Of a DNA stretch of 64,000 bases, positions 4,101 through 62,172 are shown piece by piece. Under the pieces are notes generated by a model that saw nothing but the letters and a program-made list of their open reading frames with translations, did not search any database and was not told the DNA's origin. The position numbers were made by a program, and so were the translations under genes. Origin of the DNA: Candidatus Hydrogenedentota bacterium (GTDB lineage Bacteria > Hydrogenedentota > Hydrogenedentia > Hydrogenedentales > JAEUWI01); NCBI GenBank assembly GCA_016182605.1, contig JACPGE010000074.1, positions 1,694 to 65,693 of the forward strand, given 5' to 3'. How positions within the stretch are numbered: the first letter of the stretch is position 1; each line of letters starts with the position of its first letter.

Positions 4101-4341
4101 CATCGTCATGACCTCCCTCGCCTTCGTGCTCGGGGTGCTCCCCCTCGCCTTCAGCGACGGCGCAGGCGCGGGCGGACGCCGCTCCATCGGCACCGGCGTC
4201 ATGGGCGGCATGCTCGCGGCCACCTTCCTTGCCGTGCTCTTTGTCCCCCTCTTCTTCGTCATCATTCAGTACGTTACCGAGTTCCGGCCCTGGCGCGGAC
4301 GCCAGAAAAATAACGCCGTCAAGGAGGCGTCCCATGAATAA
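1192..4341 (+). CDS. efflux RND transporter permease subunit (AcrB/HAE1-like, 12-TM with two large periplasmic loops)
   Basis: 1049-aa protein. The N-terminus MISKFFIDRPVFAAVLSILIVLCGL is canonical for AcrB-family pumps, and the length and hydrophobic blocks match. Confidence 0.9.
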   Translation: MISKFFIDRPVFAAVLSILIVLCGLASMYFLPVEQSPEITPPTISIAARYPGANAETVAESIATPIEQELSGIENLLYYSSQSANDGSLTITVTFEIGADLDIAAVEVQNRLKRAEPRLPQEVTRQGITVAKRSNNILGVAALTSPSGEYDDLYLSNYATIQMLDTIKRVPGVGDVSIFGSKDYSMRIWINPDKLAAKGLTISDVAGAVREQNGLYAAGRIGAAPINGEVELTIPVITSGRLTEPSQFEDIIVRAEPDGSLLRVKDVGRVELGALSYDAFGRLNSNPATLILIFLQPEANALSTMTGVKAALQELSKEFPKGIEFVIPFDTTNFIEVSITEVAKTFIEAALLVILVVFVFLGNWRATLIPLIAVPVAIVGAFTGMLLFGFSINSLTLFGLVLAIGIVVDDAIIVVENVERILHEEDISVRDATIKAMHQVTGPVIAIVLVLSAVYLPVAFLGGITGVMFRQFGITIAISVAISGLVALTLSPVLCRYLLQKNEHKIFLFRWFDAFFARATNLYVYSVHWTIRLGVVSLFIFAGLIYVTAKLFEQVPSAFIPQEDQGYFIVVTQLPQGASIGRTSKVMHDVEAFLLQQPEIEDVVALGGQDFLAGFSPNTSAGAMFVNLKPWAERTGPGQDVNAVVGRVFGHFGPYQDALVLAFNPPAVRGLGVRAGFEMQLESRGISDVRKLAEISNTFMGELRKDPLFVGVSSILNITQPQLYVDLDQTHAKAMGLNIGDIYDSLQAYLGALYVNDFNKYGRIYRVQLQAESEFREEPEDIRRIFVRNANGEMVQLAGVIDTHMQAGPNVVGRFNSFPSVQISGAPAPGISTGQTLERINEIAAQVLPAGYVHEWSGASYQEVKTGSQAPYIIGFGLVIVFLVLAAQYEKWSLPFAVLLSVPFGVLGAIVAVYFRGLERDIYFQIGLLTLVGLSAKNAILIVEFCSVLRAEGKGIVESAVAAARLRIRPIVMTSLAFVLGVLPLAFSDGAGAGGRRSIGTGVMGGMLAATFLAVLFVPLFFVIIQYVTEFRPWRGRQKNNAVKEASHE
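4321..4327 (+). promoter_or_regulatory. Shine-Dalgarno (AAGGAGG) for the outer membrane factor gene
   Basis: Perfect SD 7 nt upstream of ATG 4334. Confidence 0.5.
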
Positions 4342-5943: not shown

Positions 5944-5962
5944 CCCGAATAAATCACGGGCT
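5944..5962. repeat. solo 19-nt terminal motif (CCCGAATAAATCACGGGCT) of the MITE-like element family
   Basis: 18/19 match to the reverse complement of the conserved 3' terminus (AGCCCGTGATTTATCCGGG) of the elements at 21.8, 29.7 and 36.5 kb. It lies in the intergenic region downstream of the efflux operon. Confidence 0.45.
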
Positions 5963-6126
5963 CCAAACGATGTGGTCGTGTTCTCGTTACCAAGGTCCCC
6001 CTTGGTAATGCCGTCCCCGGTGCTCCGCACCCCGTCCTGCGCAGGCCTACGCCGGCCCGCAGAATTCTTGACGTGGTGAAAAATGCGGGCTTATCGGCTA
6101 CCATGGTCCGACACATCGGGTGAACC

Positions 6127-8752: not shown

Positions 8753-10783
8753 TCAATACAACTTAATAGTTTGAAAATTGCCTAGGTCTACAATAGACGC
8801 GCCGCAATGAACTACGTCGAGATCAAAATTATCTAGTTGATGCTCTTCGTCAAACCCATCATTGGGACTATCGGTGAAATCTCCCGAGTCTCTGACTGTC
8901 TTTACGGTGCCAACTCCGCCGCCAAGTCCCACAATCAGAACGCGATCATTGCAGTGAAGTATCTCACTTTGAAAATGACGAGCAACTGTTGTCCCATCTA
9001 CAGCAGCACCACAGCTTCCCATCGCCTGCTCCATGATTCTAAAGGTGCGATTCCTTACTGCATCTACCGGTCGTCCTTCACAATGATCGTAATCGTAAGT
9101 ACTCCTCGTGACTAATCCATGCTCTATCGTAGTACCGCTACCGTTAAGCAGTAATCTCTCTAAGAATAATGCATGCAAAGTTGCTTGGACCCACTGGCAA
9201 TCATCCGTCATATACACAGGTGGCGCCATGGTCCCATCACCTTGACAGGTGGCTTCTGCTTCGTCCGGTATATTGTAACGGCTGTGCCGGAACATCCCAA
9301 GATTTTCGAAGTGGTAATCCTTGTCGTCGCTATACTCAACGTTGTCGACAGTCCATTCCGCCGTGATGCCGGTGAATTCGGCTACAGGGAGATTCGCAAG
9401 GCCAAAGGATTCCACGTGCTGGCCTGCCTCACGAGAAGCTGACAGAATCTCGTGAGGTCCTCCTGGCCCCGTCAATGTCAAAACCAATGTTCCAATTACG
9501 CCGGTCGGGCCCAAGAGGACTTCAATCCGATCTTCTGTGACTTCTACATCACGAATTTTTACGGTAAGCTCGACAAATACTCCTGTCACCGTTTTGTCCG
9601 AGTCCATCGTCAGTTCGCCCGGATCGGCTTCGCCAGTCAGATCGCCCTCCCAGTGGTCGAATACCCAATCCACTTCCGCCGTAGGCGTGAGCGTTACGAC
9701 CGATCCTGACGTATAAGGCCCTTCGGCCGGCAAGACTTCGAGCGTGCCTTGGCCTGAAGTATTTGATGTCAACGAGAACCCCTGCACGAACACCGCCGTC
9801 ACGGTCTTGTCCCCATCCATCGTCAAGGTGCCGGGATCCGAATTGCCCGTCAAATCACCTTCCCAATGATCGAATACCCAATCCGTGGCCGGTGTGGGTG
9901 TTAGCGTCACTGTGGTTCCACTGTCATACGGGCCATTTTCCGGCGATACCTCCACTGTTCCCTGACCATCCGTTTCGACAGTCAAGGCAAACTCTTGCAC
10001 AAACACCGCCGTGATCAACTTGTGCCCGATCATGGTTATGGAAGCCGGGTTGGCGGAGCCCGACGTGCCGCCACTCCAATGGTCGAAGACCCAGCCACTG
10101 GCCGGCGAAGGCGTCACCGTGACCGTTGTCCCCTGCACGTAGGTGCCCATTTCGGGCGACACGGTCCCTTCGCCCTCCACCGAAACCACCAGGTAATACT
10201 GTGGATAGAACACCGCCGTGACGGACTTGCTTTCATCCATCGTCACGGTGGCCGGATTGTCCGAGCCAGAGAGGTCACCCGTCCAGTGGTGGAAGACCCA
10301 ATCGGGCACGAGGAGTCCACCATCCGTTTCGGGAATAGCCGTGACACTCACCTGGGTACCCTCGGGGTAGATGCCGGCTTCCGGCTCGACTCTCCCCTCG
10401 CCTTCCGTGGCGGTTTGCAGCCCATATAGCGGCACAAACACTGCCGTGATCGATTTGTCCGCGTTCATGGTCACGGTACCCGGATTCGACGTGCCGTTCA
10501 AATCGCCGGTCCATTCCTTGAAGGACCATCCCGTGGCAGGTGTGGGGGCGATGCTAACCTGGGTCCCCTCGGTATAGGTGCCGCTGGCGGGTGAAACGCT
10601 CCCTTGGCCAGTCGTCGCGACGCTCAGTGTGTGCGTGGCCTGTACGAAGTGGGCCGTGATCGATTTGTGCCCGTCCATGGTTACGGAGCCCGGGTTGACC
10701 GATCCGGAGTAGCCGCCGGACCAATCGTCGAATTCCCGACCGCTTGCGGTTGTGGCGGAGATCGTGAGTGTTTCATCCTGCAC
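8753..10783 (-). CDS. InlB B-repeat (Flg_new-type) containing protein with low-GC Cys-rich C-terminal domain; 5' end apparently disrupted (possible pseudogene)
   Basis: About 7 tandem ~75-aa repeats of the pattern GxGxVxxxPxxGxYxxGTxVTLTPTPAxxWxFDHWxGDLTGxxxPxxxTMDxDKTVTAVF. The listed Met lies in the middle of a repeat. An in-frame TAA sits 12 nt upstream and repeat-like sequence continues to about 11.0 kb in shifted frames, with no signal peptide. The C-terminal ~250 aa are low GC. Confidence 0.6.
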   Translation of the reverse strand: MQDETLTISATTASGREFDDWSGGYSGSVNPGSVTMDGHKSITAHFVQATHTLSVATTGQGSVSPASGTYTEGTQVSIAPTPATGWSFKEWTGDLNGTSNPGTVTMNADKSITAVFVPLYGLQTATEGEGRVEPEAGIYPEGTQVSVTAIPETDGGLLVPDWVFHHWTGDLSGSDNPATVTMDESKSVTAVFYPQYYLVVSVEGEGTVSPEMGTYVQGTTVTVTPSPASGWVFDHWSGGTSGSANPASITMIGHKLITAVFVQEFALTVETDGQGTVEVSPENGPYDSGTTVTLTPTPATDWVFDHWEGDLTGNSDPGTLTMDGDKTVTAVFVQGFSLTSNTSGQGTLEVLPAEGPYTSGSVVTLTPTAEVDWVFDHWEGDLTGEADPGELTMDSDKTVTGVFVELTVKIRDVEVTEDRIEVLLGPTGVIGTLVLTLTGPGGPHEILSASREAGQHVESFGLANLPVAEFTGITAEWTVDNVEYSDDKDYHFENLGMFRHSRYNIPDEAEATCQGDGTMAPPVYMTDDCQWVQATLHALFLERLLLNGSGTTIEHGLVTRSTYDYDHCEGRPVDAVRNRTFRIMEQAMGSCGAAVDGTTVARHFQSEILHCNDRVLIVGLGGGVGTVKTVRDSGDFTDSPNDGFDEEHQLDNFDLDVVHCGASIVDLGNFQTIKLY

Positions 10784-11068: not shown

Positions 11069-13855
11069 ATGAGACCCATACTGCTGTCCCTGTTCCTTCT
11101 GTTCACGGCCCTTTCAGCACTTGCAGACGATTTGGCTACGCTGGCCCCGCCGCCGCCCGGCCCGCCCGATACCGAGTGGATCGTGCCCGAATTGCCCTCG
11201 GCAGACATGCGCCTGTCGTGGTCCGATTTTCGCACGCTGCTGCAACTGCTCCCCACGGCCGCGCAAACCGGGCGCGAGAAACCCGATCCGCCCCCCTGGC
11301 CCTGGGCCGTGACCAGCGCACGCTACCACCTGGACGCCACGGATCACCCGGCGGTCCCCGCGGAACTGAGTCTCGAAGTGGAGGTCTGGGCGGATGCCTG
11401 GACCACCATCCCGCTACTGGGCAATAGCATCGCCGTGAGCAGCGTGTCGATCGACGGTACTGCGTCGTCCCTGCGCGACCAGGACGGCTGGTTCACGCTG
11501 CTGCTGAAAGACCCCGGGCACTATCGCGTGGATATTGCCTTCTTCGCCCAGACCGTCGAAGCCGATGGCGAAGTGACCCTGCAGTTTCCCGCCGTTGCCG
11601 CACCGGTCACGGAGGTGCTGTTGCTCCTGGGCGGCGACGCGGCGGCCGTCTCCTCGCCCAATGCCGCCCGTGTGACCCTGCACTCCAACGCGGACGGTCA
11701 GGAGGCCCTGCTTGCCCTGAAACCCGCCGAGACTCTGCAACTGCATTGGCAGCGCCCATCGCTCGTAAAAGAAAAGCTTCCGCCTGCCCCGCCACGCATC
11801 ACGGCGGATCTCCGCACCCAGGTGCGGCTCTCCGGCGGGCTCCTGGAAGGCACGGCGCGGGTGAACTTCGAAGTTCTCCGGGGCGCCGTGAACCGCTTCG
11901 CGCTCGAACTGCCCAAGGACGTGGTCCTGCTCGAAGTGGAGGGCGGGGATCTGGAGTGGACCCTGGAGGACGAGCCCGCCGTCCAATGCCTGCACCTCGT
12001 CCCGGCCAGCAGCGTCAGCGGGGTCTACCCCGTGACCCTGCGCTACGAGCAACTTCTCGCCGAAGACGCCGGGCCCGTGACCTTGCCCAAGATCGTCGCG
12101 CGCGATGTGGCGCGCCAGAGCGGCGCCATAGGCATCTCCACCGCGCGCAATTTCAGTATGGAAATCGCCGAGCCCACCCTGGGCGTGACGCGCACCGATC
12201 CGGAAGGTCAGTTTGCCCTGGGCCTGGATTGGGAAATCCTGCACGCCTTCCGCTACAGCCAGACGGACTACCAGCTCACCGTCGCGGCGGCAGTCATCCA
12301 GCCCCGCATCGCCGCAGAGACCGAGATGCTGGCCAGTGTTTCCCCAACCGCTTTTCATGTACGGGCCAACGTGCACTACCGGGTCTTGCGCGGTGAAAGC
12401 AGCCGCCTCGCACTCGCGCTTCCCGCAGGCGTGAGTGTGCTGTCGGTCACTGGTCCCGGTATGGACTGGTACGCCGTGGACAGTGATGGCGGACAGCGCA
12501 TCGAGGTGGAACTGAACGAGCCGCTGACCGATCGGTGCACCGTGCACCTGCTGCTGGAACGCAACGTGGAGAACCTGGAAGAGGCCGTGCCTGTGCCGCC
12601 GGTTACCGTGCTGGATGCCGTGCGCCAGAGCACCTGGATCGGGATCGCCGCCGCCGGAAACGTGAAAGTGGACGTGGGCGCGGACACCGCCGGCCTTGGC
12701 CGTCTGGATGAATCGGAACTCCCGGCCGGCGTGCGCGCCCTGGCGGAAAGCCCGATACTGCACGCCTTCTCCAGCCAGTCGCCCACCTTCGTCCTCCCCC
12801 TGCTACTCAGCCGTCTCGACGACGTGGCCGTGCGCGTTGCTGCCATCGATGCTGCGGAACTCACGACCGTCGTCAGCGATGAGATGCTCATTACGCGCGC
12901 CCGCTACTGGGTGCGCAACAACCAGCGCCAGTTCCTCCGCATCGATCCCGGGCCGGATGTGGAAATCTGGGGCGCGCAGGCCGATGGCCACGCGGCCAGT
13001 CCGGCGAAAGACCCGGAGTCGGAGCATGGCGTGCTGCTGCCCATGCGCAAGTCCGTGGAAGGTGCAGGCGGTTTGGGCAGTTTTCCCATGGAGATCATCT
13101 TCATGCAACGGCCGCCCTTGCCGCGCTTTGGCCGCCTTGCACTCGCGCTGCGCGCACCCGCCACCGATATCCTCGCCGACCGTATGGCGTGGACGGTCTA
13201 TGTGCCTGAAGGCTACCGGGTGAGCGCTTCTGCGGGGGATCTCGCGCCCGTCGCCTTGCCGGTGATCCTGCCCAGTCCCAACCGGGGCGCCATGACCCTC
13301 GGTAATCCGGAAACGATTTACCGGCTGCGGGAAGGCATCGAACGCTTCTTCATCACGGACATCAACAATCCCGCCGGATCAACCGCAGCCCAGTCCAAGG
13401 ACTTCGCCGGCCAGACCTATGCCGCTGCCGAAGCGGGCGAGGCTTCTGTTCGTCTGGCTGGCGTGCTCCCCGTGCATATCAATCTGCCGCAAACCGGCGT
13501 CCCGCACCGCTTCGAGCGGGCATTGGCGCCCCAGGGCGCCGCGCTTCACCTGAATCTCGCATTGACCAATGCCCGCCTCATCTGGGCGTGGGCCGCCGCC
13601 AGCGCCCTGTCCTTCTTCCTGCTGGTCCTGGCCATCCGATTCCGCGCGCCCCTGCAGGAACGCGCCTCGGCCGCCGCGTGGCGGATCGCACTGGCGATCT
13701 TGCTCGCCGTGGCGTGCGCGTCGCTCCTGCAGGCGCCCGGGATCGGCGCCATGGCGGCCCTCGTTGGGCTGGCTGCCGCCGAGGCGCTCATCCGCCTGCT
13801 TCGTCTTCGCGCCGGCCGCGCGCCGCGCCACACAAGCACAGGGGACGCGGCATGA
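11069..13855 (+). CDS. large secreted/membrane-anchored hypothetical protein (928 aa) with a DUF1559-like ITDINNPAGST motif
   Basis: Signal peptide (MRPILLSLFLLFTALSALA) and C-terminal hydrophobic helices. It contains REGIERFFITDINNPAGST, which is nearly identical in DNA to a segment of the anti-sigma gene. The stop overlaps the next start (ATGA). Confidence 0.6.
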   Translation: MRPILLSLFLLFTALSALADDLATLAPPPPGPPDTEWIVPELPSADMRLSWSDFRTLLQLLPTAAQTGREKPDPPPWPWAVTSARYHLDATDHPAVPAELSLEVEVWADAWTTIPLLGNSIAVSSVSIDGTASSLRDQDGWFTLLLKDPGHYRVDIAFFAQTVEADGEVTLQFPAVAAPVTEVLLLLGGDAAAVSSPNAARVTLHSNADGQEALLALKPAETLQLHWQRPSLVKEKLPPAPPRITADLRTQVRLSGGLLEGTARVNFEVLRGAVNRFALELPKDVVLLEVEGGDLEWTLEDEPAVQCLHLVPASSVSGVYPVTLRYEQLLAEDAGPVTLPKIVARDVARQSGAIGISTARNFSMEIAEPTLGVTRTDPEGQFALGLDWEILHAFRYSQTDYQLTVAAAVIQPRIAAETEMLASVSPTAFHVRANVHYRVLRGESSRLALALPAGVSVLSVTGPGMDWYAVDSDGGQRIEVELNEPLTDRCTVHLLLERNVENLEEAVPVPPVTVLDAVRQSTWIGIAAAGNVKVDVGADTAGLGRLDESELPAGVRALAESPILHAFSSQSPTFVLPLLLSRLDDVAVRVAAIDAAELTTVVSDEMLITRARYWVRNNQRQFLRIDPGPDVEIWGAQADGHAASPAKDPESEHGVLLPMRKSVEGAGGLGSFPMEIIFMQRPPLPRFGRLALALRAPATDILADRMAWTVYVPEGYRVSASAGDLAPVALPVILPSPNRGAMTLGNPETIYRLREGIERFFITDINNPAGSTAAQSKDFAGQTYAAAEAGEASVRLAGVLPVHINLPQTGVPHRFERALAPQGAALHLNLALTNARLIWAWAAASALSFFLLVLAIRFRAPLQERASAAAWRIALAILLAVACASLLQAPGIGAMAALVGLAAAEALIRLLRLRAGRAPRHTSTGDAA

Positions 13856-20652: not shown

Positions 20653-21783
20653 ATGGAAAACTCTTTGTATAGCGAAAGTAAAGAAATGGCAAATTCAACC
20701 GCTTCGCCGGATCAGGCTCCCGACCCGCTCACCGCCGAGCCGGGCCTGGGCATCGCGCCCGATGGCGCCGTCCGCCAGCCCAATGCGGCGCTGCTCCAGT
20801 TGCTGGGCGTGCCTTCCACGGTGCTGGAGGGCCTTCCGGTGCACTCGCTTGAAGCCCGCAAGGAGATCCCCGAAGGCATCGCCTGGAGTCTGGCGCAGCT
20901 TTTCGACGAGATGGCCGCTCCGGAGGCCCCCCCGGCCCTGGCCATGCTCGCCTCGGAAGGCGAACGGGTTTTCTGTCTCAAGGCCTTCCGGCGTGCGGGC
21001 GGCGGCGGACTCTGGGTGCGCGTGGATGAGATTACGGACGCGTATGAAACCCACTATTACGACGAGACGGCGCACCACAGCCGCTGGCAGGAGCTGGAAG
21101 CGGAGAACCGCGAACTTGAGGCCTTCGCCTACAGCGTGGCCCACGATCTGCGCGCGCCCCTCCGCTTCATCGCCAAGTTCGCGCACCTGCTCATGGAAAA
21201 CCATGGCGAGGAACTTTCCAATGAGGCGCTCCAATACGCCGACCAGATTCGCGAGGGCTCGCGCCAGATGGCCCAGTTGATCGAGGACCTGCTGGAGTTT
21301 TCCCAGGTGATCGGCCAGTCCATCGACCGCGAGCCCGTCGACCTCGGGGCGCTCGTCGCCCAGGTTTACGAAGAGATGGCGGAAGAGCGCGAGGACCGGG
21401 CGGTGGAATTTGTGCTCCATGAACTGGCGCCCTGCCACGCCGACCCCGCGCTGCTGCGGCGGGTCCTCTACAACCTCCTGGGAAACGCGTTGAAATTCAC
21501 CCGGACCCGCGAACGCGCCCGGATTGAGATCGGTATGCACTGGGACGCGGAGGAGGAGGAGGCCGTGTACCACATTCGCGACAACGGCGTGGGTTTCGAC
21601 TCGGAATTCAGCGACCGGCTGTTCCAGGTTTTCAAGCGCTTTCACCAGCCGGACGAATTCGAGGGCACGGGCATCGGCCTGGCGCTGGTGAAACGCATTA
21701 TAGAGCGCCACGGCGGCCGCATCTGGGCCGAAAGCAAGGTCGGTGAGGGCGCCTGTTTCTATTTTACGCTCGCGCCGGAATGA
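20653..21783 (+). CDS. sensor histidine kinase (PAS-like N-terminus, HisKA, HATPase_c)
   Basis: Start refined to ATG 20653 (MENSLYSESKEMANST...). H-box FAYSVAHDLRAPLR, N-box LYNLLGNALKFT, G-boxes DNGVGFD and GTGIGLALV. Confidence 0.8.
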   Translation: MENSLYSESKEMANSTASPDQAPDPLTAEPGLGIAPDGAVRQPNAALLQLLGVPSTVLEGLPVHSLEARKEIPEGIAWSLAQLFDEMAAPEAPPALAMLASEGERVFCLKAFRRAGGGGLWVRVDEITDAYETHYYDETAHHSRWQELEAENRELEAFAYSVAHDLRAPLRFIAKFAHLLMENHGEELSNEALQYADQIREGSRQMAQLIEDLLEFSQVIGQSIDREPVDLGALVAQVYEEMAEEREDRAVEFVLHELAPCHADPALLRRVLYNLLGNALKFTRTRERARIEIGMHWDAEEEEAVYHIRDNGVGFDSEFSDRLFQVFKRFHQPDEFEGTGIGLALVKRIIERHGGRIWAESKVGEGACFYFTLAPE

Positions 21784-21810
21784 ACACGCGCCGGCCAATG
21801 CCGGGGCTGG

Positions 21811-22014
21811 CCCGCATATTTCATCACTCTGAGGCCTCCAGATTAGATTCGGATTGGCCCCGTGGTGAAATCTGCTCAGCGGGGCGATGGCGCTGGCGTT
21901 CACCGGGCAGGCTAAATCACGGGCTGTTGGTCATTCCCAGATTTGAAGTTGGGATAACGATAGGTGTGAGTGGGTGTTAAGACTACATTGTTAGGAGCCC
22001 GTGATTTATCCGGG
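21811..22014. repeat. MITE-like double-hairpin intergenic repeat, copy 1 (between the HK and RR genes)
   Basis: Shares with the copies at 29738 and 36499 the 5' end CCCGCATATTTCA(C/T)CAC, internal GTGGTGAAAT(A/C)TGC, conserved core GACGATGGxGCTGGCGxTCxCCGGGCAGGxxAAATCACGGGCTGT, and an identical 3' end GGAGCCCGTGATTTATCCGGG. Confidence 0.6.
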
Positions 22015-24477: not shown

Positions 24478-27400
24478 ATGAACCGGGCAGGGGGCAAACG
24501 GCGTGAGGATTTGGGCGTGCAAGCATTGAGTGCCATTCCAGTTGTTTACTTTCCGCGGCCCGTGGCCTGTGCCGCTCTGGTCCTGGCGTGGACCCTCCCG
24601 GCCCTCGCGGCGGAACCGGTTAACTTCAACCGCGACATCCGCCCGGTGATTTCGGACAAGTGCGTCTCGTGTCATGGTCCGGACGAGAAGACGCGCAAGA
24701 TGGAACTGCGCCTGGATCGGAAAGACGGTCTGTTTGGGGTAACGAAAGACGGCGCCGCCATTGTGGCCCCGGGCAACCCCGATGCGAGCGCGCTGCTGCA
24801 ACGCATCACCCACGCGGATGTGGACGAGCGCATGCCTCCGGCGGAGACGAAGAATCCGCTGAGCGCGGAGGAAATCGAGGCGCTTCGGAATTGGATAGTC
24901 CAGGGCGCGCCCTGGCAGGACCACTGGGCTTTTGAACGGCCGGTGAAACCGGCGCTGCCCGAGGTTTCCAACCCGGCTTGGTGCCGCAACGAGATCGATC
25001 GGTTTGTGCTTGCGAAGCTGGATGAAGCCGGCTTGCCCCCCGGGGCGGAAGCCCGCAAAGAAACGCTTCTCCGGCGCGTTTCATTCGACCTCACTGGATT
25101 GCCGCCCACGCCCGGCGAGGTGGACGCTTTTCTCGCGGACACGAGCGACGGCGCCTACGAGACGTTGGTCGACCGCCTCCTCGCCACGCCGCAGTATGGG
25201 GAGCGCATGGCCTTCACGTGGCTGGACGCGGCGCGCTATGCCGATACGAATGGATACCAGCGCGACACCAAGCGGTACATGTGGCACTGGCGCGATTGGG
25301 TGATCAACGCCTACAACGAAAACATGCCCTTCGACCAGTTCACCATTGAGCAGCTCGCGGGAGATTTGCTGCCCGACGCCACGCTCTCGCAGAAGATTGC
25401 CACGGGCTTCAACCGCAACCACCGGATCAATGGTGAAGGCGGCATCATCCCGGAGGAGTATGCGGTGGAGTATGTGGTGGATCGGGTTGCCACGACCAGC
25501 ACCACGTGGATGGGGCTGACCATGGGCTGTGTCCGCTGCCATGATCACAAGTTTGATCCCATCTCGCAGAAGGAATTCTACGAGATGTATGCCTTCTTCA
25601 ACCGGGTCCCGGAGAATGGCAAAGGCGAAGAGCGCGGCAACGATGTGCCCTACATCGCCGTGCCCACGGCGGAAGAGACCGCGCGCCGGGAGGAACTCAC
25701 CGGGAAGATCGCGGCGGTGGAGCAGGAGCTTGCCGCCCCCGATGAGCGGCTCGATGGCTTGCAGCGCGCTTGGGAAGAGCAGCTCTATGCCACGTTCTCG
25801 GAACTCAACTGGCAGCCGATCGGCAATCCCACCGTCGCGGCCGTGAATGGCGCCGTGCTCACGCCACAGGCCGACCAGAGCCTGCTCGCGAGCGGCCCCA
25901 GCCCGGACAAGGAAGTCTATGAGATTTCCTTCGAGGCCACCGGGGCCGTGCGCTCGTTCAAGCTGGAGATCTTTACCGATCCGTCGCTGCCTGCGGGCGG
26001 TCCCGGCCGCGCCCCGGAAGGCAACCTCGTTATCTCCGGCTTCGAAGTCGAGCGCACTCCTGCTGGTGGCACGGGCGCAGCCGAGCCTGTGCGCGTTGCG
26101 GATGCCATTGCCGATTATGCGCAGGACAACGGCGACTACCGGGCCATCAACGCGATCGACGCGAGCGATGACACGGGCTGGGCCACGGGATCGCCCTACC
26201 GGCGGGAGAACCGATCTGCGATCTTCACACTCGCTCCGGATGCGGGCATTGCCGCGGGCGATCGCGTGACGGTGCGCATCCGTCAGAACTCTCCATATCC
26301 CCAGCACACCGTCGGGAGATTCCGTTTGCTGCAATCGGCCTCGGGCGCCGCGGCGGCGTGGGCGCGGCCCGAATTTGGGCCGTGGCATTACGTGGGCCCC
26401 TTCCCCATCGAGAACAACAACGACAGCATGCTCATTGAGCGTGTCTTCGCCCCGGAACGCGGCTTCGATCCCGATCGCGAACACGGTCCGGAGCGTCTGC
26501 GCTGGCAGGAACGGCCCGAGTGGGAAGATGGCAAGCTTGTCAATTTCGATGCCTCCGGACGCACTGCACACTACCTCCACCGCAACCTGCGCCTCGCCAT
26601 TCCCACCACCGTGGTGCTTTCCCTGGGCAGCAACGATGCCATCAAAGTCTGGGTGGACGGTGAGGTGAAACATCTTTTCAATGGCGGCCGGACGGTTGCC
26701 CCCGATCAGGATCGGGTGGAGCTTTTCCTTCCCGCGGGCGACCACAGCCTCCTGATCAAGATCGCCAACTTCGGCGGTGCGTGTGGCTATTATTTCCGCC
26801 ATGTGGACGATGGCGGGCAGGCGCTTTTCGCGATGATGCACCAGCTTGCGGCGCCGCCGGAACAGCGCGACGCGGAACAGCGCAGGATCCTGCAGGAGCG
26901 TTTTCGCGCGCAGGACGCCCAATGGGTTGCACGCAACGGCGCATTGATTGGCCTGCGGAACGAACTGGGCACGCTCGACAAGAGCATTGCCACCACCATG
27001 ATCATGGAGGACATGGCCACGCCGCGCGACACGTATCTTCTGAAGCGCGGTGTCTATGATGCGCCCGACACGACGGAGAAACTCTTTCCCAGCGTTCCCG
27101 AACGCCTGGGCGAAATGGATCCCGCCCTGCCGAAGAACCGGCTGGGTCTCGCGCAATGGCTTATGGACCCGAAACATCCGCTTACGGCGCGCGTGCAGGT
27201 CAACCAGTTCTGGCAGACACACTTTGGCCGGGGCCTGGTGAAGACCGCCGAGGATTTCGGCACCCAGGGCGCCGCCCCCAGCCACCCCGGACTGCTCGAC
27301 TGGCTCGCATTGCGCTTTATCGAGTCCGGCTGGGACGTGAAGGCGATGCACAAGTACATCGTCATGAGCGCCACATACCGTCAATCTTCGGTCGTCTCGG

Positions 27401-28095
27401 ACAGCGCCCGCGAGGCGGACCCGGAAAATGTCCTCCTCAGCCGCGCGCCGCGCTTCCGGTTGCCCGCCGAGATGGTCCGCGATCAGGCGCTTAAGGTCAG
27501 TGGATTGCTGAACCCGGAGATTGGCGGCCCCTCCGCCTTCCCCTATCAGCCCGGCGATCTGTGGTCCGCACTTACGTTTCAGAACATGGACGAGTTCGAC
27601 AGCAACTTCTACACGCAGGACAAGGGCCCCAAACTTTACCGCCGCGGACTCTACACCTATTGGAAGCGCACCATCGCGCCGCCGGGGATGCAGATATTCG
27701 ACGCCGGTGATCGCGACCGCTGTTCGCTCTACCGTGAGAAGACGAACACCCCGATGCAGGCACTGATGCTACTCAACGATCCCACGTTCGTCGAGGCGGC
27801 CCGGCACCTGGCCGAGCGCATGATTCACGAGGGCGGTGAACGATCCGCGGATCGCATCCGCCTCGGTTACCGCCTGGCGCTCGCCCAGGAACCTTCCGCG
27901 GAAAAACAGCAGGTCCTGCTCGGCGGACTCAACGATTACCAGACCCACTTCAACAGCCGTCCGGACGATGCCACGGCACTCCTCGGCGTGGGGGATTCCC
28001 CGCACGACCCGGCCATTGCGGACACCGAACTCGCGGCCTATACGGCCATTGCTACGGTCATGCTCAACCTCGATGAAATCATCACACGGGAATAA
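24478..28095 (+). CDS. PSCyt1/PSCyt2-DUF1549-DUF1553 family protein (Planctomycete cytochrome-c-like CxxCH, PSD1)
   Basis: [10 protein letters not shown] haem-like motif near the N-terminus. The central region is conserved with the two paralogs at 32449-35616 and 48056-50512, and there is a C-terminal DUF1553-like region. The true start is possibly the internal GTG before [11 protein letters not shown] (signal peptide). Confidence 0.85.
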
Positions 28096-28100
28096 GCACC

Positions 28101-29549
28101 ATGGATCCCATCCTCGAACAACGGCTTCACATTAACCGCAGGCAGTTCTTTGGCAAGTGCGCGACGGGCATCGGCACGGCGGCGCTCGCGTCGCTGGTCA
28201 GCCCGGATCTGTTTGCGTCCATGTCCGACCCGATGGCGCCGCGCGCGCCCCACTTTGCCCCCAAGGCCAAGCGGGTCATCTACCTCTTTCAATCCGGGGC
28301 GCCCTCGCAACTCGATCTTTTCGACTACAAGCCGCAGATGGCCAAGATGTTCGATCAGGATCTCCCGGATTCCATCCGCATGGGCCAGCGCCTTACCGGC
28401 ATGACCTCCGGCCAGACCCGCTTTCCCGTGGCGCCTTCCATCTTCAAGTTCCAGCAATACGGCCAGGGCGGCGCGTGGATCTCTGAAGTGCTGCCGCACC
28501 TTTCAAGCATTGCCGACGAACTGTGCATCATCAAGACCATGCACACGGAAGCGATTAACCACGACCCTGCCATGACCTTTTTCCAGACAGGCTTCCAGAT
28601 CGCGGGCCGCCCCAGCATGGGCGCCTGGGTCTCCTACGGTCTCGGCTCCGCCAACCAGGATCTGCCTGCCTTTGTTGCCCTCAGCTCCCGCGGCAGCGGC
28701 CGGCCCAGTTGCCAGCCCCTTTACGACCGGCTCTGGGGCAGTGGCTTCCTGCCCACGGTGTATTCTGGCGTCAAATTCCGCGGCGAAGGCGATCCGGTCT
28801 TGTATCTTTCGGATCCGCCCGGGGTCGACAAGACGCTGCGCCGGAAGATGCTCGACGATATTGCGGCGATCAACCATCAGACCCACTCGGAATACCAGGA
28901 TCCTGAAATCGTCACGCGCATCGAGCAATATGAACTTGCCTACCGGATGCAATCGTCCGTTCCGGAGCTCACCGATCTCTCCAATGAGTCCGATGCGACA
29001 TTCGAGCAGTACGGCCCCGAGTCCCGCACGCGCGGCACCTATGCGGCGAACTGTCTCCTGGCGCGCCGCCTTGCCGAACGCGGCGTGCGTTTCATCCAGC
29101 TTTACCATATGGGCTGGGATCAACACACCACGCTGCCCAAAGAATTGCCCGGTCAGGCCCGCGACGTCGACCAGCCGACGGCGGCGCTCATACTCGACTT
29201 GAAGCAGCGCGGCATGCTGGAGGACACCCTGATCATCTGGGGTGGCGAATTTGGCCGCACGATTTACAGCCAGGGCGCGCTGACGGCCACCGACTACGGC
29301 CGTGACCACCACCCGAAAAACTTCACCATTTTCATGGCGGGCGGCGGGGTGAAGCCCGGCCTCGTCCACGGCGAAACTGACGACTTCTCTTACAACATCG
29401 TCAAGGACCCGGTCGATGTGTTCGATCTTCAGGCCACGATCCTCAACCAATTGGGCCTCGATCACGAGCGCCTCAACTTCAAGTACCAGGGCCGCTATTT
29501 CCGGCTCACGGACGTGCACGGGAAGGTGAAGCACGAGTTGCTGGCGTAG
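28101..29549 (+). CDS. DUF1501 (sulfatase-like) Tat-exported protein, partner of the PSCyt/DUF1553 protein
   Basis: Twin-arginine signal [21 protein letters not shown]. Conserved with the paralogs at 30977-32428 and 50518-51969. Confidence 0.85.
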
Positions 29550-29737: not shown

Positions 29738-29913
29738 CCCGCATATTTCACCACTTCAAGGCTTCTTGGCAACGAGTTCGACTTGGAAGGTGGTGAAATA
29801 TGCTCAGCGTGACGATGGTGCTGGCGTTCACCGGGCAGGATAAATCACGGGCTGTCTGGCGATACCGCCGAGCATGTTACGGAACGAACGCGTGGAGCCC
29901 GTGATTTATCCGG
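29738..29913. repeat. MITE-like double-hairpin intergenic repeat, copy 2 (flanked by GTTAAC/GTTAAC)
   Basis: Hairpin 1 is CCCGCATATTTCACCAC...GGTGGTGAAATATGC. Hairpin 2 is GGATAAATCACGGGCT...AGCCCGTGATTTATCC. The termini form an imperfect TIR (CCCGcATAtttCAC / CCCGgATAaatCAC). It is flanked by a TTAA duplication-like sequence. Confidence 0.6.
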
Positions 29914-29918
29914 GTTAA

Positions 29919-30509
29919 CTACTTCGGCTCTGCCACCGGAACTTCGGCCGGTACTTCAGGCTTGGCTGCGGGTGCTTCAGGCTTGGCCGCGGGTGCTTCA
30001 GGCTTGGCGGCAGGAGCCTTGGGCTTGGCTGCGGGCGCCTTGATCAGCGCTGCAGTTTCCTTCCCCATACCCTTCATCATCGGACACTGCGCCCCGCCTT
30101 CGGTGTCCATTGGCATATGTTCCATCATGTGACCCATCATAGCATCACCCAGTTTGGCTTCACGCGCATCTGTGGCTGCCCGTTGCTCTACCATCAGGGT
30201 TATCACCGCGGCCATCAGTTCCATTTTCTTTCCTTCCGGCGCGCTATTCATCTTGGCGAGTTGCTTGGCCAGTTCAACATCCTGGGCCTTTGCTTCTTGG
30301 GCCGCCTTCTGTTTCTGCTGCATCATCGATTGGCAGTGATTCATTTTCTTATCGTCTTTTTTCGCCTTCTCCACCACCTTCTGTTCGGCGGGCTCGGCAT
30401 CTTGTGCTTGAACGGGCGACCAGATGACCAAGGCCAAGGCCAGAACCAGGGCAAAGGTCACTGCGAGAATGGAACGGCTGGCGAGACTTGGATGCAATTC
30501 GTGTTTCAT
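29919..30509 (-). CDS. exported Met/His-rich protein with C-terminal PAAKPEA tandem repeats (possible periplasmic metal/copper-binding protein)
   Basis: Start refined to MKHELHP (ATG at 30509) with a signal peptide. MMGHMMEHMPMD and MMQQ motifs resemble Met-rich Cu(I)-binding motifs. The C-terminus has (PAAKPEA)n. Confidence 0.5.
   Translation of the reverse strand: MKHELHPSLASRSILAVTFALVLALALVIWSPVQAQDAEPAEQKVVEKAKKDDKKMNHCQSMMQQKQKAAQEAKAQDVELAKQLAKMNSAPEGKKMELMAAVITLMVEQRAATDAREAKLGDAMMGHMMEHMPMDTEGGAQCPMMKGMGKETAALIKAPAAKPKAPAAKPEAPAAKPEAPAAKPEVPAEVPVAEPK
29952..30035. repeat. four tandem 21-nt repeats (CTTCAGGCTTGGCTGCGGGTG-like) encoding the PAAKPEA repeats
   Basis: Direct visual tandem repetition within the 3' end of the Met-rich protein gene. 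Confidence 0.6.
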
Positions 30510-30976
30510 TTTTCTTCTCTCTTCACGTTTGGGTTTGTAGTTTGGGCCGGAGGCTTGGAACACCACCGGCAGTGAATGAAAACACAGGCGCGCCCTTGGT
30601 CTGGACCAAGGCGGGCACAGCCTGGAACTACTTCTGGACGAGCCTATTGCTGACATAGAACTGCTTGCCATCGCAATTTGCACACAAAGCTGGAGTTTCT
30701 ACTTGTTGGGGGACAGACCATGACAGCTTTCGCGCAGGTATCTGCCCTTCCACGTCCCAAGGATATCTGCACCGGGTGAAGTTCAGGCAAGGCTGCGGAT
30801 AAGGTTTGGCAAGTCTGGGATGGGGGTTATCGTGCAGGGAGATCGGTGCGGCTGCCACGCCCGATCAAGATACTCATGCCCCGGCGAGAAACGTGCAACG
30901 GCCCAAGAAAGGGGGGCGCAGCAAAGTCCCGGCTGAACCATATGGGCAGCCGGGTGGCAGGAAGAATGGAGTGCGA

Positions 30977-32428
30977 TTAGGCCAATAGCCCGGGAATGGG
31001 GTCGTGTTCCTCGACGCCGGTGAGGCGAAGGTTGAGCCCCTGGTAGGGCACGGACAACTGCCGGTGGTTGATGCCGAGGCAGTGGAGCATCGTGGCGTTA
31101 AGGTCGTTGACGTGGACCGGGTTCTCGACGATGTTGTAGCTGAAGTCGTCAGTCGTGCCGTAGACCTGGCCGGCCTTGATGCCGCCGCCCGCGAGCCAGA
31201 GGCTGAAGCAACGCGGGTGATGATCGCGGCCATAGGTGACGTCGGTCACCTTTCCCTGGGAATACACGGTGCGGCCAAACTCCCCACCCCAGACCACGAG
31301 CGTATCCTCCAGCAAGCCGCGCTGCTTGAGATCGGTAACGAGCGCGGCGCTGGCCTGGTCGGTATCGTAGCATTGCTTGGAGAGGTGGTCCGGCAGGTTG
31401 TCGTGATGGTCCCATCCCATGTGGTAGAGCTGTACAAAGCGCACGTCGCGTTCGGCCATCCTGCGCGCGAGCAGGCAGTTTCTTGCGAAGGTGCCGGGCC
31501 GGTGCACGTCGGGGCCGTACATGTCGAGGATGTGTTTGGGCTCGTCGGAGATGTCGGTGAGTTCGGGCACGGCGGTCTGCATGCGGAAGGCGAGTTCATA
31601 CTGGTCGATACGGGTGAGAATTTCCGGATCGCCCACGGCCTCGTGCTTCTCCTGGTTTAGCGCGCGGATCTGATCGAGCATGCTGCGGCGCGTTGTGGGG
31701 CTGCACCCGCCGGGGTTGGCGAGGTAGAGCACGGGCTCTTCCCCGCTCCGCAATTTCACGCCCTGGTAACGCCCCGGGAGCACGCCGCTCCCCCAGAGCC
31801 GATCGTAGAGGGGCTGGTCGGCCGCGCGTCCGCTGCCGCGGGAGATCATGACCATGAAGGTGGGGAGATCGTCGTTCGAGGAGCCGAGTCCATAGGCGAC
31901 CCAGGCGCCCATGCTGGGCCGGCCCGCAAGCTGGGAGCCGGTCTGACAGAAGGTAATGGCGGGGTCATGATTGATGGCTTCGGTGTACATGGTGCGCACG
32001 ATGCAGAGATCGTCCACGATGCCCGCGGTGTGGGGCAGAAGTTCCCCCATCCACGCGCCGCTTTGGCCATGCTGCGCGAATTTGAACTTGGAGGCGACCA
32101 CGGGAAACGTTGTCTGGCTGGCCGTCATGCCGGTAAGGCGCTGCCCCATGCGGATCTCGGCCGGGAGTTCCGTCATGTGGATTTTTTCCAGGCTGGGCTT
32201 GTAATCAAAGAGCTCTATCTGCGAAGGCGCACCGGATTGAAAGAGGTAGATGACGCGCTTGGCCTTCGGCTTATGGTTTGGAAAGGCCGCCGCGCCTGGG
32301 AGGGCGGCGTCCGCGCGGTTGGGAACCGTCATGCCATAGAGGCCCAAGGCTGCGGCGCCCAAGCCTCCGGCCGCGTTGCGCAGGAAGAAGCGGCGGTTCA
32401 TTTGCTGGGTAAGGTGTAACGGATCCAT
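30977..32428 (-). CDS. DUF1501 Tat-exported protein (paralog)
   Basis: [23 protein letters not shown] Tat signal. Collinear similarity to 28101-29549. Confidence 0.85.
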
Positions 32429-32448
32429 GGCTCTGTAATGCTCCGTGT

Positions 32449-35400
32449 TTACTCGATGGTAATGGCTTCGTCCAGATTCAGGATGACCCCGGCGATGGCC
32501 ATGTAGGCCGGCAATTCAACGGGATCCAGCTTCGTGTCCGCGGGCGCCTCGCCCTGGGCGGCAAACATGGCGGCGGCTTCCGGATCATTCGCATAGGTGC
32601 GCAGGTGATCCTGCAAACCGGTGGACAGGATTTGCCATTCGGTTTCGTTGGGGTAGCGGCCCGTCACAAGCCGGAATCCGTAGCGCACCCGTTCCATGGC
32701 ATCGCCCGGGGCCTCGCTCAGCATGCGTTCGGCCAGTTTGCGCGACGCTTCCACATAGGTGACGTCGTTGAGGAGCGCGAGCGCCTGCAACGGCGTGTTT
32801 GTGCGCGCGCGAAGCACACGGCAGATCTCCCAACTGGGCGCGTCGAAGGTGCTCAGGGTGGGATGCGGCACGGTGCGCTTGCGGTACGTGTACAGGCTGC
32901 GCCGGTAGAGGTCCTCGCCCTTGCTCTGCACATAGGGCCCCTCCCCCGCGCCACCAGCAAGTTCTTCCCAAAGTTTGTCGGGCTGATACGGTTTCACAGA
33001 GGGCCCGCCAATCCTTCGCGCCAGAAGGCCGCTCACCGCGAGGGCGTTGTCGCGAATGCTTTCGGCCGCCATGCGGAAGCGCGGACCGCGCGCATAGAGA
33101 TCGTTCTCTGGGTCACGCTCTGCAAGCACGGTGGACACGGCAGAGTCCTGTTGGTAGGTGGCGCTCATGACAATACGTTTCTGGAAGGCTTTCATATCCC
33201 AGCCCATGGCGATGAACTCCGTCGCCAAATAATCGAGCAGTTCGGGGTGGGACGGCGGATCGCTCTGGGTGCCGAAGTTGTCGGGCGCCTTGACGAGACC
33301 CTTTCCAAAAAACTGCAGCCAGAACCGGTTCACTGCAACCCGCGCCACCAGGGGGTTGGCGGGGTCCACCAGCCACTGTGCGAGCCCGAGCCGGTTCGCG
33401 GGCGCGCCTTCGGGCAGCGGTGGAAGAAAGGCGGGCACACCAGGGGAAAGCGTCTCGGTGGTGTCAGGCGCGTCGTAGAGGCCGCGTAGCAGGCGGTAAG
33501 TCGGACGCGGTTCGGGCAGTTCCTTCATCACCATTACGGTGGGAACTTCCTTTGCCGCATATTCGTTCCGCTCGTCTTCGATTTTTTTGACTGCGGCGAT
33601 CTCCGATGTGAGTTGATTGGTGCGCTCGGCCTCGAGGAAGGCTTCGAGGGATTCCTTCTTGTCCTCCGGCACGCCCGCGCCGTAGGTGGCGTCCAGAGCG
33701 GTGTCGCGAATCGATCGGATCTGCGGGGCATCGAGCACGCGCGAAAAATACTGGAAGTCGGCCACGGCGCCCTTGAAGAACGCGCTTTCGGAGAGGCGTC
33801 CCAGCAGGACGGGCGCCTCGGCATGAATGGATCCGGCAAGCGCGTCGGTTTCGGTCTTCAGGGGCGCCGCCGCGCCGCCAATGAAGATCTGCACGCCCTG
33901 GGCCTTGGCCGAACCGTCGTACGCAATGCACACGTGCGACCACGTGCCCATGCGCAGCCCCTTCTCGGCGATAACCTTGAGGGCATTTTCCGGCCAGGCG
34001 TGCACCAGACGCACCACCAGGGATCCATCGTCGCCCAGCAGGGCATCGACGCCGCGGAACTGCCGGGCATCGTCCATACGGCTGAAGATGGCGCCGGACG
34101 TTTCCGGACGCACCCAGAAGGAAATCGTGAAGGGCCGGTCTTTTTCGAAGTCAATCGCAGGGCCCAGATCCGCGTGGGACTCGGCGGTACCGTCGAGGTG
34201 GAGCGCGGGTCCGGTAAGGCCCTCTTGAAAGACGGGCCCTGTGGCGGCGGCATAGCGGACCGGGGATTGAATCTGTGCGGCGTATCCCGCCGTGGCGCTG
34301 GCGCGGAGGTGGCCACGGAGCGGCAGGCGCAGATCCGAATCGGGCGCCGGGGGCGCGGGCGCGGGATCTTCCCACACCATGAGTTGCTTGTCGAGTTCCG
34401 CGCGCTGCTTGCGCAGGCTGCGCCTGGCGTCTTTCAGGGCTTCGTCAAACTCCGCGAGACGGGCGGTGGTTTCCGGAGTTGCGATGGTAACGATGGGGCC
34501 CGCATTGCCCCGGGTTTCCTCGTAGAAGCCCTTGTCTTCGGTGCTGTTGAAGATTGCGAAGAACCGATAGAACTCTTTCTGGCTGATGGGATCGTATTTA
34601 TGGTCGTGGCAGCGGGCGCAGCCCATGGTGAGACCGAGAAAGACGGCCGAGGTCGATTCCACGCGATCGATGATGTTCTCGACACGCCACTCGTCTTCGA
34701 TCGAGCCGCCTTCGGTGTTGGAGCGGTTGTTCCGGTTGAAGCCCGAGCCGATGCGCTGGGCGTCAGTGGCGTCCGGCAGGAGATCGCCGGCAATCTGCTC
34801 GACGGTGAACCGATCGAAGGGCATATTGTTGTTGAAGGCCTGAATAACCCAATCGCGCCAGGGCCACATCTGGCGGTTGAAGTCGTTCTGAAAACCGTTC
34901 GTGTCGGCGTAGCGCGCGCCATCGAGCCATATGCGCGCCATGTTCTCGCCGTAGTGGGGCGAAGCTAGAATCCGATCCACGAGCCGCGCATAGGCATCTG
35001 GCGCGGTGTCCGCGAGAAAGGTGTCGATTTCCTCCGGCGTGGGCGGAAGACCGGTGAGATCGAGGCTGAGCCTGCGGATCAGGGTCTCGCGGGATGCGGG
35101 CTTCGCCGGAGAAAGGGCCTCGGCCTCGATTCGAGCGAGTACGAAATGGTCCAGTCCATCGCGCGGCCACTCCGGGTGCGATACCGCAGGTAACGCGGGT
35201 GCGGCGGGCGTCTCGAATGCCCAGTGCTGGGCCCAGGGCGCGCCGGCGGCGATCCAGGTGCGCAGCAGTTCCACTTCCTCAACAGTGAAGGGCTTGCGCC
35301 GGGCTTCGGCGGGGGGCATCTGCTCCTCTGGGTCGGTGGAGAGAATGCGCTTGAGCATCTCGCTCTCTTCCGGCTTGCCCGGCACGATGGCCTTGGCGAG

Positions 35401-35616
35401 GGCGGAGTCTTCCACGTCGAGCCGGAGTTCTGCCTTGCGCTGTTGACTGTCGGGACCGTGGCATTGGTAACAACGATCGGCGAGGATCGGCTGAATCTGC
35501 CGGGTAAAGTCGATGGCTTGCGGTTCCGCCGCCTGAACGGCGAGGGGCGTTAAACAGCCGATACCGGCCAGAATAAGCTGGGCACATCGCGGAGGTATTC
35601 GAAAGATCATGAGCAA
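32449..35616 (-). CDS. PSCyt-DUF1549-DUF1553 family protein (paralog)
   Basis: [14 protein letters not shown] motif. Conserved blocks (WDxxAxxYVxxAxxxAxxxL, [16 protein letters not shown]) are shared with the other two paralogs. Confidence 0.85.
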
Positions 35617-35784: not shown

Positions 35785-36498
35785 ATGGATGAATCCGTAT
35801 CCATAAGGAGCCAGTTTAACGGCCCGCCCGGCTCGGGCAATGGGGGCTACGTCTGTGGATTGCTGGGCAAACACTTTGGAGACGCACCGGCGGAGGTCAC
35901 GCTGTTTGTGCCACCGCCGCTGGAAAGACCGCTCCGCCTGTTGCGGGACGGGGAACACCTTGCCCTGATGGACGGGGAGCAAAAGGTGGCCGAGGCGAAA
36001 CCCGCCGCGCTGCAGCTGGAGGCGCCGGGCCCGCCCACGCTCGCGGTGGCCGAAGAAGCGGTGCAACGCTACCGGGGCTTTCACACGCACAGTTTTCCTT
36101 CCTGTTTCGTCTGCGGCCCGGACCGTGCCGAGGGCGACGGGTTGCGCATCTTTTCGGGCTGGGTTCCGGGCAGTGACGTGCTGGCGGCTCCCTGGACGCC
36201 GGGCCTCCAATTCGCGCAGGCGGACGGCACCGTGGACCCGGCGATCTGCTGGGCCGCGCTGGACTGTCCCGGCGCCTTTGCGATCTATCACGCCACGGGT
36301 GACGCCGCGCCCACAATCGTGCTGGGCCGCATGACCGGGCGGGTGCTGGCCAGCGCGCGCGCGGGCGCACCGCACGTGGTGATCTCCTGGCCCCTCGGGC
36401 ATGAGGGGCGAAAACACCACGCGGGCACGGCCATCTACACGGAGGATCATCAGTTGCTGGCCTGCTCGCGCCAGACATGGATCACGATCAAGAGCTAA
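35785..36498 (+). CDS. hypothetical protein (possible hotdog/thioesterase-like fold)
   Basis: Start at MDESVS. The stop TAA is immediately abutted by the MITE copy 3 terminus. The family call is weak. Confidence 0.35.
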   Translation: MDESVSIRSQFNGPPGSGNGGYVCGLLGKHFGDAPAEVTLFVPPPLERPLRLLRDGEHLALMDGEQKVAEAKPAALQLEAPGPPTLAVAEEAVQRYRGFHTHSFPSCFVCGPDRAEGDGLRIFSGWVPGSDVLAAPWTPGLQFAQADGTVDPAICWAALDCPGAFAIYHATGDAAPTIVLGRMTGRVLASARAGAPHVVISWPLGHEGRKHHAGTAIYTEDHQLLACSRQTWITIKS

Positions 36499-36693
36499 CC
36501 CGCATATTCCGCCACATCAAGACTTTTTGGCAACAAGCTCCACTTGGAACGTGGTGAAATATGCGTAGCGCGACGATGGAGCTGGCGCTCGCCGGGCAGG
36601 CCAAATCACGGGCTGTCTGGCGGTAGCGCCCTGCATGATGTGGCAATTGCGGGTCCAAAAAGGAGTTAGGGAACAGACGCGCGGAGCCCGTGA
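36499..36693. repeat. MITE-like double-hairpin intergenic repeat, copy 3 (flanked by TAA/TAA)
   Basis: Same architecture and conserved termini as copies 1 and 2. TAA is present on both flanks (the left one is the stop codon of the upstream gene). Confidence 0.6.
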
Positions 36694-36775
36694 TTTATCC
36701 GGGTAAGCACAATACTGGGCTTGGGCGCCCGCGGAAAACTGTGGTGCGCCGGCTCTCCAGAAGAGTACAAACCGA

Positions 36776-57307: not shown

Positions 57308-57455
57308 GGACGCAATGCGGGAGCGACATATATTGACACTCTAATTGATTGGCTCAAAAGACGCCCTTTGTTTTTGAATAAAGATGTGGTGCTTCTGTAT
57401 CGAGGTCCGCGTTCCCGATGGCCCAGGTTTTGATGCATATTTCTTGACATTTATG

Positions 57456-60263: not shown

Positions 60264-60289
60264 AAACGGTTGGTTTTCCCTGCTTCAAT

Positions 60290-62038: not shown

Positions 62039-62172
62039 GTCTCCCCGTTGCCCTCTATCTTTCAGCGTGCCGAGCCCCAAAAAAAAACTGCCGCGCCACA
62101 CAAGGACGAGACAGTATAGTACACCGCCAACTGAATTATGTAAAGTCAATTACATAGGAAATGCTTCGCTGG

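Follow-up and report, generated by a model that had tools for sequence, protein, structure and literature searches.

A histidine kinase gene (stop codon at 21783) and a response regulator gene (start codon at 22030) are separated by one copy of a repeat, the density of which is four copies in the window, that is, the whole 64-kb stretch of DNA analysed here, plus a fifth 0.7 kb beyond it. The copies, with their flanking nucleotides, are as follows:

21811..22014, plus strand: copy 1, 204 nt, full double-hairpin form, flanked by CTGG and CAGG
29738..29914, plus strand: copy 2, 177 nt, the best paired of the copies, flanked by TTAA and TTAA
36499..36703, plus strand: copy 3, 205 nt, flanked by CTAA and TAAG
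5944..6089, minus strand (read 6089 to 5944): copy 4, 146 nt, termini-only variant, flanked by TAAG and ATAG
positions 1–25 of contig L013, ~703–727 nt to the left of window position 1, minus strand: copy 5, with left flank TTAG

The copies are intergenic throughout, and both orientations are represented. Copy 2 lies between convergent genes, a DUF1501 gene (plus strand, ending at 29549) and a 254-aa open reading frame (minus strand, stop codon 29919–29921), and its TTAA flanks sit inside the palindrome AGTTAACT. Copy 3 starts directly 3′ of the TAA stop codon (36496–36498) of a 237-aa gene (P0001), with an MFS transporter gene (36776) downstream of it, while copy 4 lies between an outer-membrane efflux gene (ending at 5893) and an ECF sigma factor gene (6127). 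The full copies 1–3 have the same orientation as the upstream gene and are located at or near its 3′ end.

A profile made from copies 1–3 re-finds each of them in the window (nhmmer, E 1e-56 to 1e-64), and the same profile matches copy 4 on the minus strand at 6089–6061 (element start) and 5979–5944 (element end). The 21-mer GGAGCCCGTGATTTATCCGGG forms the 3′ terminus; the window has three exact occurrences and one with a single mismatch, against an expectation of zero, and the 21-mer includes the half-site GGATAAATCAC (reverse complement). Its positions are:

21994..22014, plus strand: 3′ terminus of copy 1, exact
29894..29914: 3′ terminus of copy 2, exact
36683..36703: 3′ terminus of copy 3, exact
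5944..5964, minus strand: 3′ terminus of copy 4, one mismatch

The three full copies of the original prediction are therefore real, far beyond chance, and so is the identical 3′ end that it assigned to them. The positions that it gave for copy 1, between kinase and regulator, and for copy 3, abutting a stop codon, agree with the gene coordinates above. Its start positions stand, but two of its ends (29913 and 36693) need correction to 29914 and 36703, and what it described as a solo terminus at 5944–5962 is the 3′ end of the complete, internally different copy 4.

The fifth copy was seen in a Logan contig from the source sample that extends 728 nt to the left of the window and opens with the reverse complement of the first 25 nt of the element (CCCGCATATTTCACCACTTCAAAGC); its left flank reads ...GCGGTTAG. 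Logan contigs from this sample (SRR12113422) terminate inside copies 2, 3, 4 and 5, with contigs L003 and L004 breaking within copy 2, which is the expected effect of a repeat on an assembly graph. The source is a Candidatus Hydrogenedentes metagenome-assembled genome: the proteins encoded next to the copies are 100% identical to those of an NCBI MAG with this label (locus tag HYV27_15520).

Several other features lie in and beside the window. Positions 61–110 of L013, to the left of the window, hold a promoter-like TTGACA ... TACTAT pair together with a 22-bp perfect palindrome (CTATACCGTCTAGACGGTATAG); both precede a TetR gene, which is followed by an HlyD–RND–outer membrane efflux operon (window 29–5893), and the palindrome is probably the TetR operator. 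A gene of lower G+C content at 8753–10783 (minus strand) encodes six InlB B-repeat (Flg_new_2) domains, with repeats of ~213 nt. Three paralogous pairs, each of a PSCyt1/PSCyt2/PSD1 protein and a DUF1501 protein, lie at 24478–29549 (plus strand), 30977–35616 (minus strand) and 47963–about 51950 (plus strand), the second being bracketed by copies 2 and 3. The 254-aa open reading frame next to copy 2 (29919–30683, minus strand) has no family match, and a 21-nt tandem repeat at 29947–30030 encodes (KPEAPAA)n at its C-terminus. An island of low G+C content (57300–63500; 47–53% versus 61% overall) is possibly acquired DNA. It contains open reading frames of 935 aa (57456–60263), 619 aa (60290–62149) and 122 aa (62173–62541), all on the minus strand and all without a Pfam, NCBIfam or PADLOC match, and a DUF2920 fragment follows at 63470–63991. 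In searches of four island proteins against PADLOC, and of these four and two repeat-flanking proteins against NCBIfam, no match was found.

The full form of the repeat comprises, in order, a closing pair of the 5′ CCC with the terminal GGG, hairpin 1, a 34-nt linker and hairpin 2. In copy 2, these parts are located as follows:

29741..29803, plus strand: hairpin 1, with arms GCATATTTCACCAC (29741–29754) and GTGGTGAAATATGC (29790–29803)
29804..29837, plus strand: linker, fixed at 34 nt (TCAGCGTGACGATGGTGCTGGCGTTCACCGGGCA), not present in copy 4
29838..29914, plus strand: hairpin 2, with arms GGATAAATCACGGGCT (29838–29853) and AGCCCGTGATTTATCC (29896–29911)

The arms of copy 1 that are equivalent to hairpin 1 are 21814–21827 and 21862–21875. 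The tip of hairpin 1 is variable (35 nt in copy 2, and 34–35 nt in the full form), and the loop of hairpin 2 is 42–70 nt long depending on the copy and poorly conserved. The element is bounded by 5′ CCCGCATATTTCAC ... GTGATTTATCCGGG 3′, and its outer arms form an imperfect 14-bp terminal inverted repeat, CCCGSATAWWTCAC, with 9–11 of 14 matches in all four complete copies (null P = 5e-5 for at least 11 of 14), so that the terminal inverted repeats claimed for the family are borne out. In addition, the full form has an internal inverted copy of each end. The half-site GSATAWWTCAC thus occurs four times per full element, once in each arm and in alternating orientation, and this arrangement generates the two long hairpins joined by the fixed 34-nt linker. 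The window holds 16 matches to this half-site, against ~4 expected, of which 12 or 13 lie inside the elements; all four half-sites are matched in copy 2, and the three or four matches outside the elements correspond to the chance level.

Conservation is uneven along the element. Pairwise identity is 82–100% in the stem arms and 79–91% in the linker, versus 31–80% in the tip of hairpin 1 and 24–49% in the loop of hairpin 2, and the last 19 nt are 100% identical among the three full copies, the two ends being nearly invariant overall. This pattern does not suit the decaying element that had been proposed: with arms and linker 79–100% identical beside loops of 24–49%, the termini and core are under constraint, and there is no uniform decay. 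It fits either the evolution of sub-families under constraint for transposition, or a role at the level of the host.

Copy 4 departs from this plan. Approximately 33 nt of its 5′ end (CCCGCATTTTTCACCACGTCAAGAATT) and ~40 nt of its 3′ end (...GGAGCCCGTGATTTATTCGGG) are homologous to the other copies, and these termini pair with each other. Everything from the second arm of hairpin 1 to the first arm of hairpin 2, linker included, is replaced by an interior of ~70 nt of unrelated, G+C-rich sequence with small palindromes of its own.

The region around copy 1 was compared with that of relatives whose response regulator homologs share 64–72% identity with that of the window, and which are thus relatives rather than strains of the same population. 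The gene order of the window (deoxyhypusine synthase, AdoMet decarboxylase, methyltransferase/ATP-grasp, kinase, regulator, single-domain regulator) is found in an NCBI Hydrogenedentes MAG (L005) and in an ENA Hydrogenedentiales bin (L006/L007). In a TARA-derived contig set (L010–L012), the methyltransferase/ATP-grasp gene still adjoins the kinase and regulator. The kinase, regulator and single-domain regulator stay together on a third ENA contig (L008), and two short JGI contigs retain the kinase–regulator pair. The distance from the kinase stop to the regulator start is 3–4 nt in six of six independent relatives versus 246 nt in the window, and copy 1 accounts for 204 of these 246 nt; copy 1 is therefore an insertion. 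Such a short spacing in the relatives is consistent with translational coupling. In the alignment with the relatives, the flank CAGGGGTGA on the right of copy 1 falls on their AGGGG ribosome-binding region, and the sequence to the right of copy 1 (CAGGGGTGAACGGCAGTG) aligns with both this region and the start codon. On these alignments, copy 1 is an insertion in the 3′ tail of the kinase gene that left the translation signals of the regulator intact, and at least one copy of the family is, by the same comparison, a lineage-specific insertion.

The kinase in the window ends three codons past a conserved FTL motif (21781–21783 and 21784–21810), and those of the relatives run on for ~10 codons; its present TGA may be a secondary stop gained once the insertion disrupted the original tail. 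Exact excision of copy 1, without removal of any duplication, recreates an in-frame stop like that of the relatives, 6 nt ahead of the regulator start; this plausible junction leaves room for a duplication-free mechanism. The protein upstream of copy 3 stops where its homologs stop, which places copy 3 at a native TAA stop codon, with no truncation of the gene. When the element profile was run with nhmmer on 128 kb of fetched loci, ~93 kb of which came from relatives, no member was found outside the source organism.

We note that the flanks of the element also carry a signal of duplication. Read as direct repeats, the flanking 4-mers of the four complete copies agree at 10 of 16 positions, against a mean of 4.2 under the null (P = 0.003), and the signal is strongest at 4 nt. 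Copy 2 is perfect and copy 3 has a 3-nt TAA, while copies 1 and 4 match at three of four and two of four positions, respectively. The TAA/TTAA target-site duplication that had been suggested is therefore clean in two of the four complete copies (2 and 3) but not in copies 1 and 4. Further out, four of five copies have G at position −5, and three of four have C at position +5. The evidence for flanking repeats is real but inconsistent, its length and sequence differing from copy to copy; the direct repeats of MITEs are known to wane with time (PMC10969869).

Taken together, the repeat is small (146–205 nt, below the ~500 bp of MITEs), has no coding capacity, bears terminal inverted repeats and is dispersed in several copies, and the junction in the relatives provides an empty site to compare with the occupied one. 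No consistent open reading frame was found: the six-frame translations are interrupted and unconserved as protein, and no homolog of the six-frame translated element was found among 5.8 billion protein sequences. The core also suggested a conserved small peptide, M-x-LAFTGQxKSRAV, but this candidate was discarded, as the substitutions are mostly non-synonymous and copy 1 is without the first ATG. We consider it probable that the repeat is a small, non-coding, non-autonomous MITE-like (foldback) element, moved in trans by a putative transposase that recognises its termini. The original prediction of a mobile element, in preference to a structured RNA, is supported in this respect by the insertion of copy 1, by copy 4 and by the terminal inverted repeat.

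Among bacterial MITEs are the Correia element of Neisseria, ERIC/IRU of enterobacteria and RUP of Streptococcus pneumoniae (PMC10969869; PMC2229807); MITEs favour A/T-rich intergenic sites for insertion, and their transcripts form stable stem–loops (PMC10969869). Like the Correia, ERIC and RUP elements, the present repeat is small and non-coding, has terminal inverted repeats, lies between genes or 3′ of genes (including inside operons), occurs in multiple copies with internally differing subtypes, is flanked by partly eroded short A/T-containing repeats, and could fold as long stem–loops when transcribed. Unlike them, it has two hairpins with a conserved 34-nt linker and not a single foldback, is G+C-rich (53–61%, in a genome of 61% G+C) and has no sigma-70 promoter consensus in or beside copies 1–3; no sequence similarity to them was found by blastn on plasmids and phages or in Rfam.

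With regard to the type of transposase, IS5 duplicates a 4-bp 5′-YTAR-3′ target (PMC5009759). This motif fits three of the five left flanks (TTAA, CTAA and TTAG) and one right flank (TTAA), but not copy 1 (CTGG/CAGG), copy 4 (TAAG/ATAG) or the right flank of copy 3 (TAAG), and no IS5-type transposase was found in the window. The termini of the repeat (CCCGCATA...) also seem unlike the ends of IS5. In copy 2, the arrangement TTAA/CCC...GGG/TTAA is presumably the signature of piggyBac-type ends and target, and is treated here as a lead only. IS1380 transposases are prokaryotic relatives of piggyBac (PMC10140906). Unlike such elements, the repeat has TTAA on both sides in only one of the four complete copies, and no transposase of this type was seen in the window. 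More generally, among the predicted proteins of the 64-kb window, Pfam identified no transposase, integrase or Y1 (HUH) transposase.

Searches beyond the window were made with the sequence of the element itself. Neither pattern scans of viral contigs nor blastn against plasmids and phages gave a match, and an exact-pattern scan of genome and metagenome contigs for the 3′ terminus returned only one unrelated Omnitrophica site. This exact 20-nt match (L001 5340–5359 and L002 10374–10393, the same organism in both collections) lies in an A+T-rich MAG, 18 nt upstream of the start codon of a response regulator, and has no partner arm. As ~2 chance matches are expected in 596 Gb, we regard it as a coincidence and not as a member of the family.

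The main rival, ahead of a single-strand mechanism and of an array of binding sites, is that the repeat is primarily a host-useful cis-acting RNA or DNA module like REP/BIME or ERIC, in which the two hairpins, carried on the mRNA of the upstream gene, would stabilise or process the transcript, or set the relative expression of the neighbouring genes, with site-by-site selection keeping the arms and linker. This reading is compatible with a transposon origin, and we regard it as unlikely. The contrast between conserved arms and linker (79–100% identity) and diverged loops (24–49%) speaks in its favour, as does the placement of the three full copies, which share the orientation of the upstream gene and lie close to or at its 3′ end. 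Moreover, two single-sided changes in hairpin 1 retain pairing as G-U or U-G wobbles on the plus strand, and the hairpin 1 tip of copy 1, only 46% and 31% identical to those of copies 2 and 3, still pairs. Against it, none of the 32 stem pairs in the three full copies is changed on both sides and 27 are invariant, in line with the lack of compensatory changes noted originally. With three full sequences, the power of this comparison is low, so that absent covariation alone neither supports nor excludes structure.

The folding calculations bear on the same question. It had been claimed that each copy folds into two long hairpins; this holds for the minimum-energy folds of copies 1 and 2, but the best fold of copy 3 is a different one, at −83.8 kcal/mol versus −73.7 kcal/mol for its double hairpin. 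Compared with shuffled sequence, only copy 2 folds clearly better (z −5.9), and the other three of the four copies, which are no better than shuffled, have z-scores of −1.6 (copy 1), −2.4 (copy 3) and −1.35 (copy 4). A search for intrinsic terminators (G+C-rich stems with a U-tract behind them) found no such site at or inside copies 1–3, the sequences 3′ of which are CAGGGG, TTAACT and TAAGCA, respectively. Rfam 15 gave no match in the whole window at gathering thresholds, and only chance-level matches around copy 1 at E up to 10; together with the lack of covariation, this argues, as did the original prediction, against a structured RNA. Integron attC sites, dif/Xer sites, DnaA boxes, retron RNAs and IscB/TnpB guide RNAs were also considered and set aside, because the repeat seems to match none of them in sequence or architecture, and Rfam gave no match to HEARO. 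Finally, copy 4 has both termini but is without the linker and without one arm of each helix, which sits badly with an RNA dependent on both hairpins. It also runs in the opposite orientation, and the element is absent from the ~93 kb of relatives' DNA.

The conserved linker is a point contrary to the MITE-like reading as well, being not obviously needed by a simple model of transposase binding. Further points contrary to that reading are the lack of a transposase gene in the 64-kb window, the inconsistent flanking repeats and the fit of the copy 1 junction to an insertion with no duplication; in addition, the empty sites belong to relatives with a regulator of only 64–72% identity, and no presence/absence polymorphism was seen within the population. 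One could imagine, at rather low probability, that the full form is a functional module spread by a transposon, its four putative protein-binding half-sites and length-invariant linker being under selection (e.g., for a part in RNA processing or stability by which adjacent genes are uncoupled, as at the kinase–regulator junction), or else the substrate of a type of transposase as yet undescribed in the uncultivated phylum Hydrogenedentes, in which case copy 4 would be the smallest form able to move.

Movement as single-stranded DNA through the hairpins, with the repeat as an IS200/IS605-derived, REP/RAYT-type or other HUH substrate, is improbable. Like the palindrome-associated IS200/IS605 elements and REP/BIME, the repeat is hairpin-forming, non-coding and intergenic, and its long subterminal hairpins have related arms at both ends. 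IS200/IS605-type elements insert beside a short recognised sequence without target duplication; in keeping with this, the flanks of copy 1 show no clean duplication and its exact excision gives a plausible ancestral junction. In one relative (L010, an ENA ERZ3421808 contig), a 226-aa open reading frame at 11244–11924 has a weak Y1_Tnp (IS200/RAYT-like) match and lies 3.4 kb from the kinase–regulator pair. However, the left flanks vary and share no fixed tetra- or pentanucleotide (CTGG, TTAA, CTAA, TAAG and TTAG), a true terminal inverted repeat is present here whereas IS200/IS605 elements are without one, and the window has no Y1 transposase. The loops of IS200/IS605 ends and REP hairpins are far smaller than the 35–70-nt loops of the present repeat, and copy 4 keeps the termini without the hairpins.

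It is very improbable that the clustered GSATAWWTCAC sites are an operator array for a host DNA-binding protein and not mobile DNA: their excess (16 versus ~4), their concentration in the elements and their alternating orientation would suit such an array, but the similarity spans 146–205 nt with non-site sequence included, the copies lie 3′ of genes or between convergent genes and not at promoters, copy 1 is an insertion absent from the relatives, and matches outside the elements are at chance level.

As a MITE-like element, which we favour, the repeat would be moved in trans by a transposase encoded elsewhere in the genome that recognises its termini. Insertion would prefer short A/T-containing sites of the YTAR/TTAA type, which in a genome of 61% G+C would be found mostly at stop codons and between genes, and would leave a direct repeat of 3–4 bp that later erodes. 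Only the termini would be strictly needed, as copy 4 suggests. As side effects, the copies would probably be co-transcribed with their neighbours, and copy 1 has split the kinase–regulator pair while preserving the AGGGG ribosome-binding region.

Small elements with inverted repeats, such as this one, are widespread among bacteria, and the family opens no new biological question. Its uses are modest: in a candidate phylum that is poorly sampled, it marks mobile DNA and the points at which assemblies break, and it offers an example of a miniature transposon that splits a two-component operon and spares the ribosome-binding site of the regulator, while its four repeated half-sites provide a concrete handle for tracing the transposase responsible.
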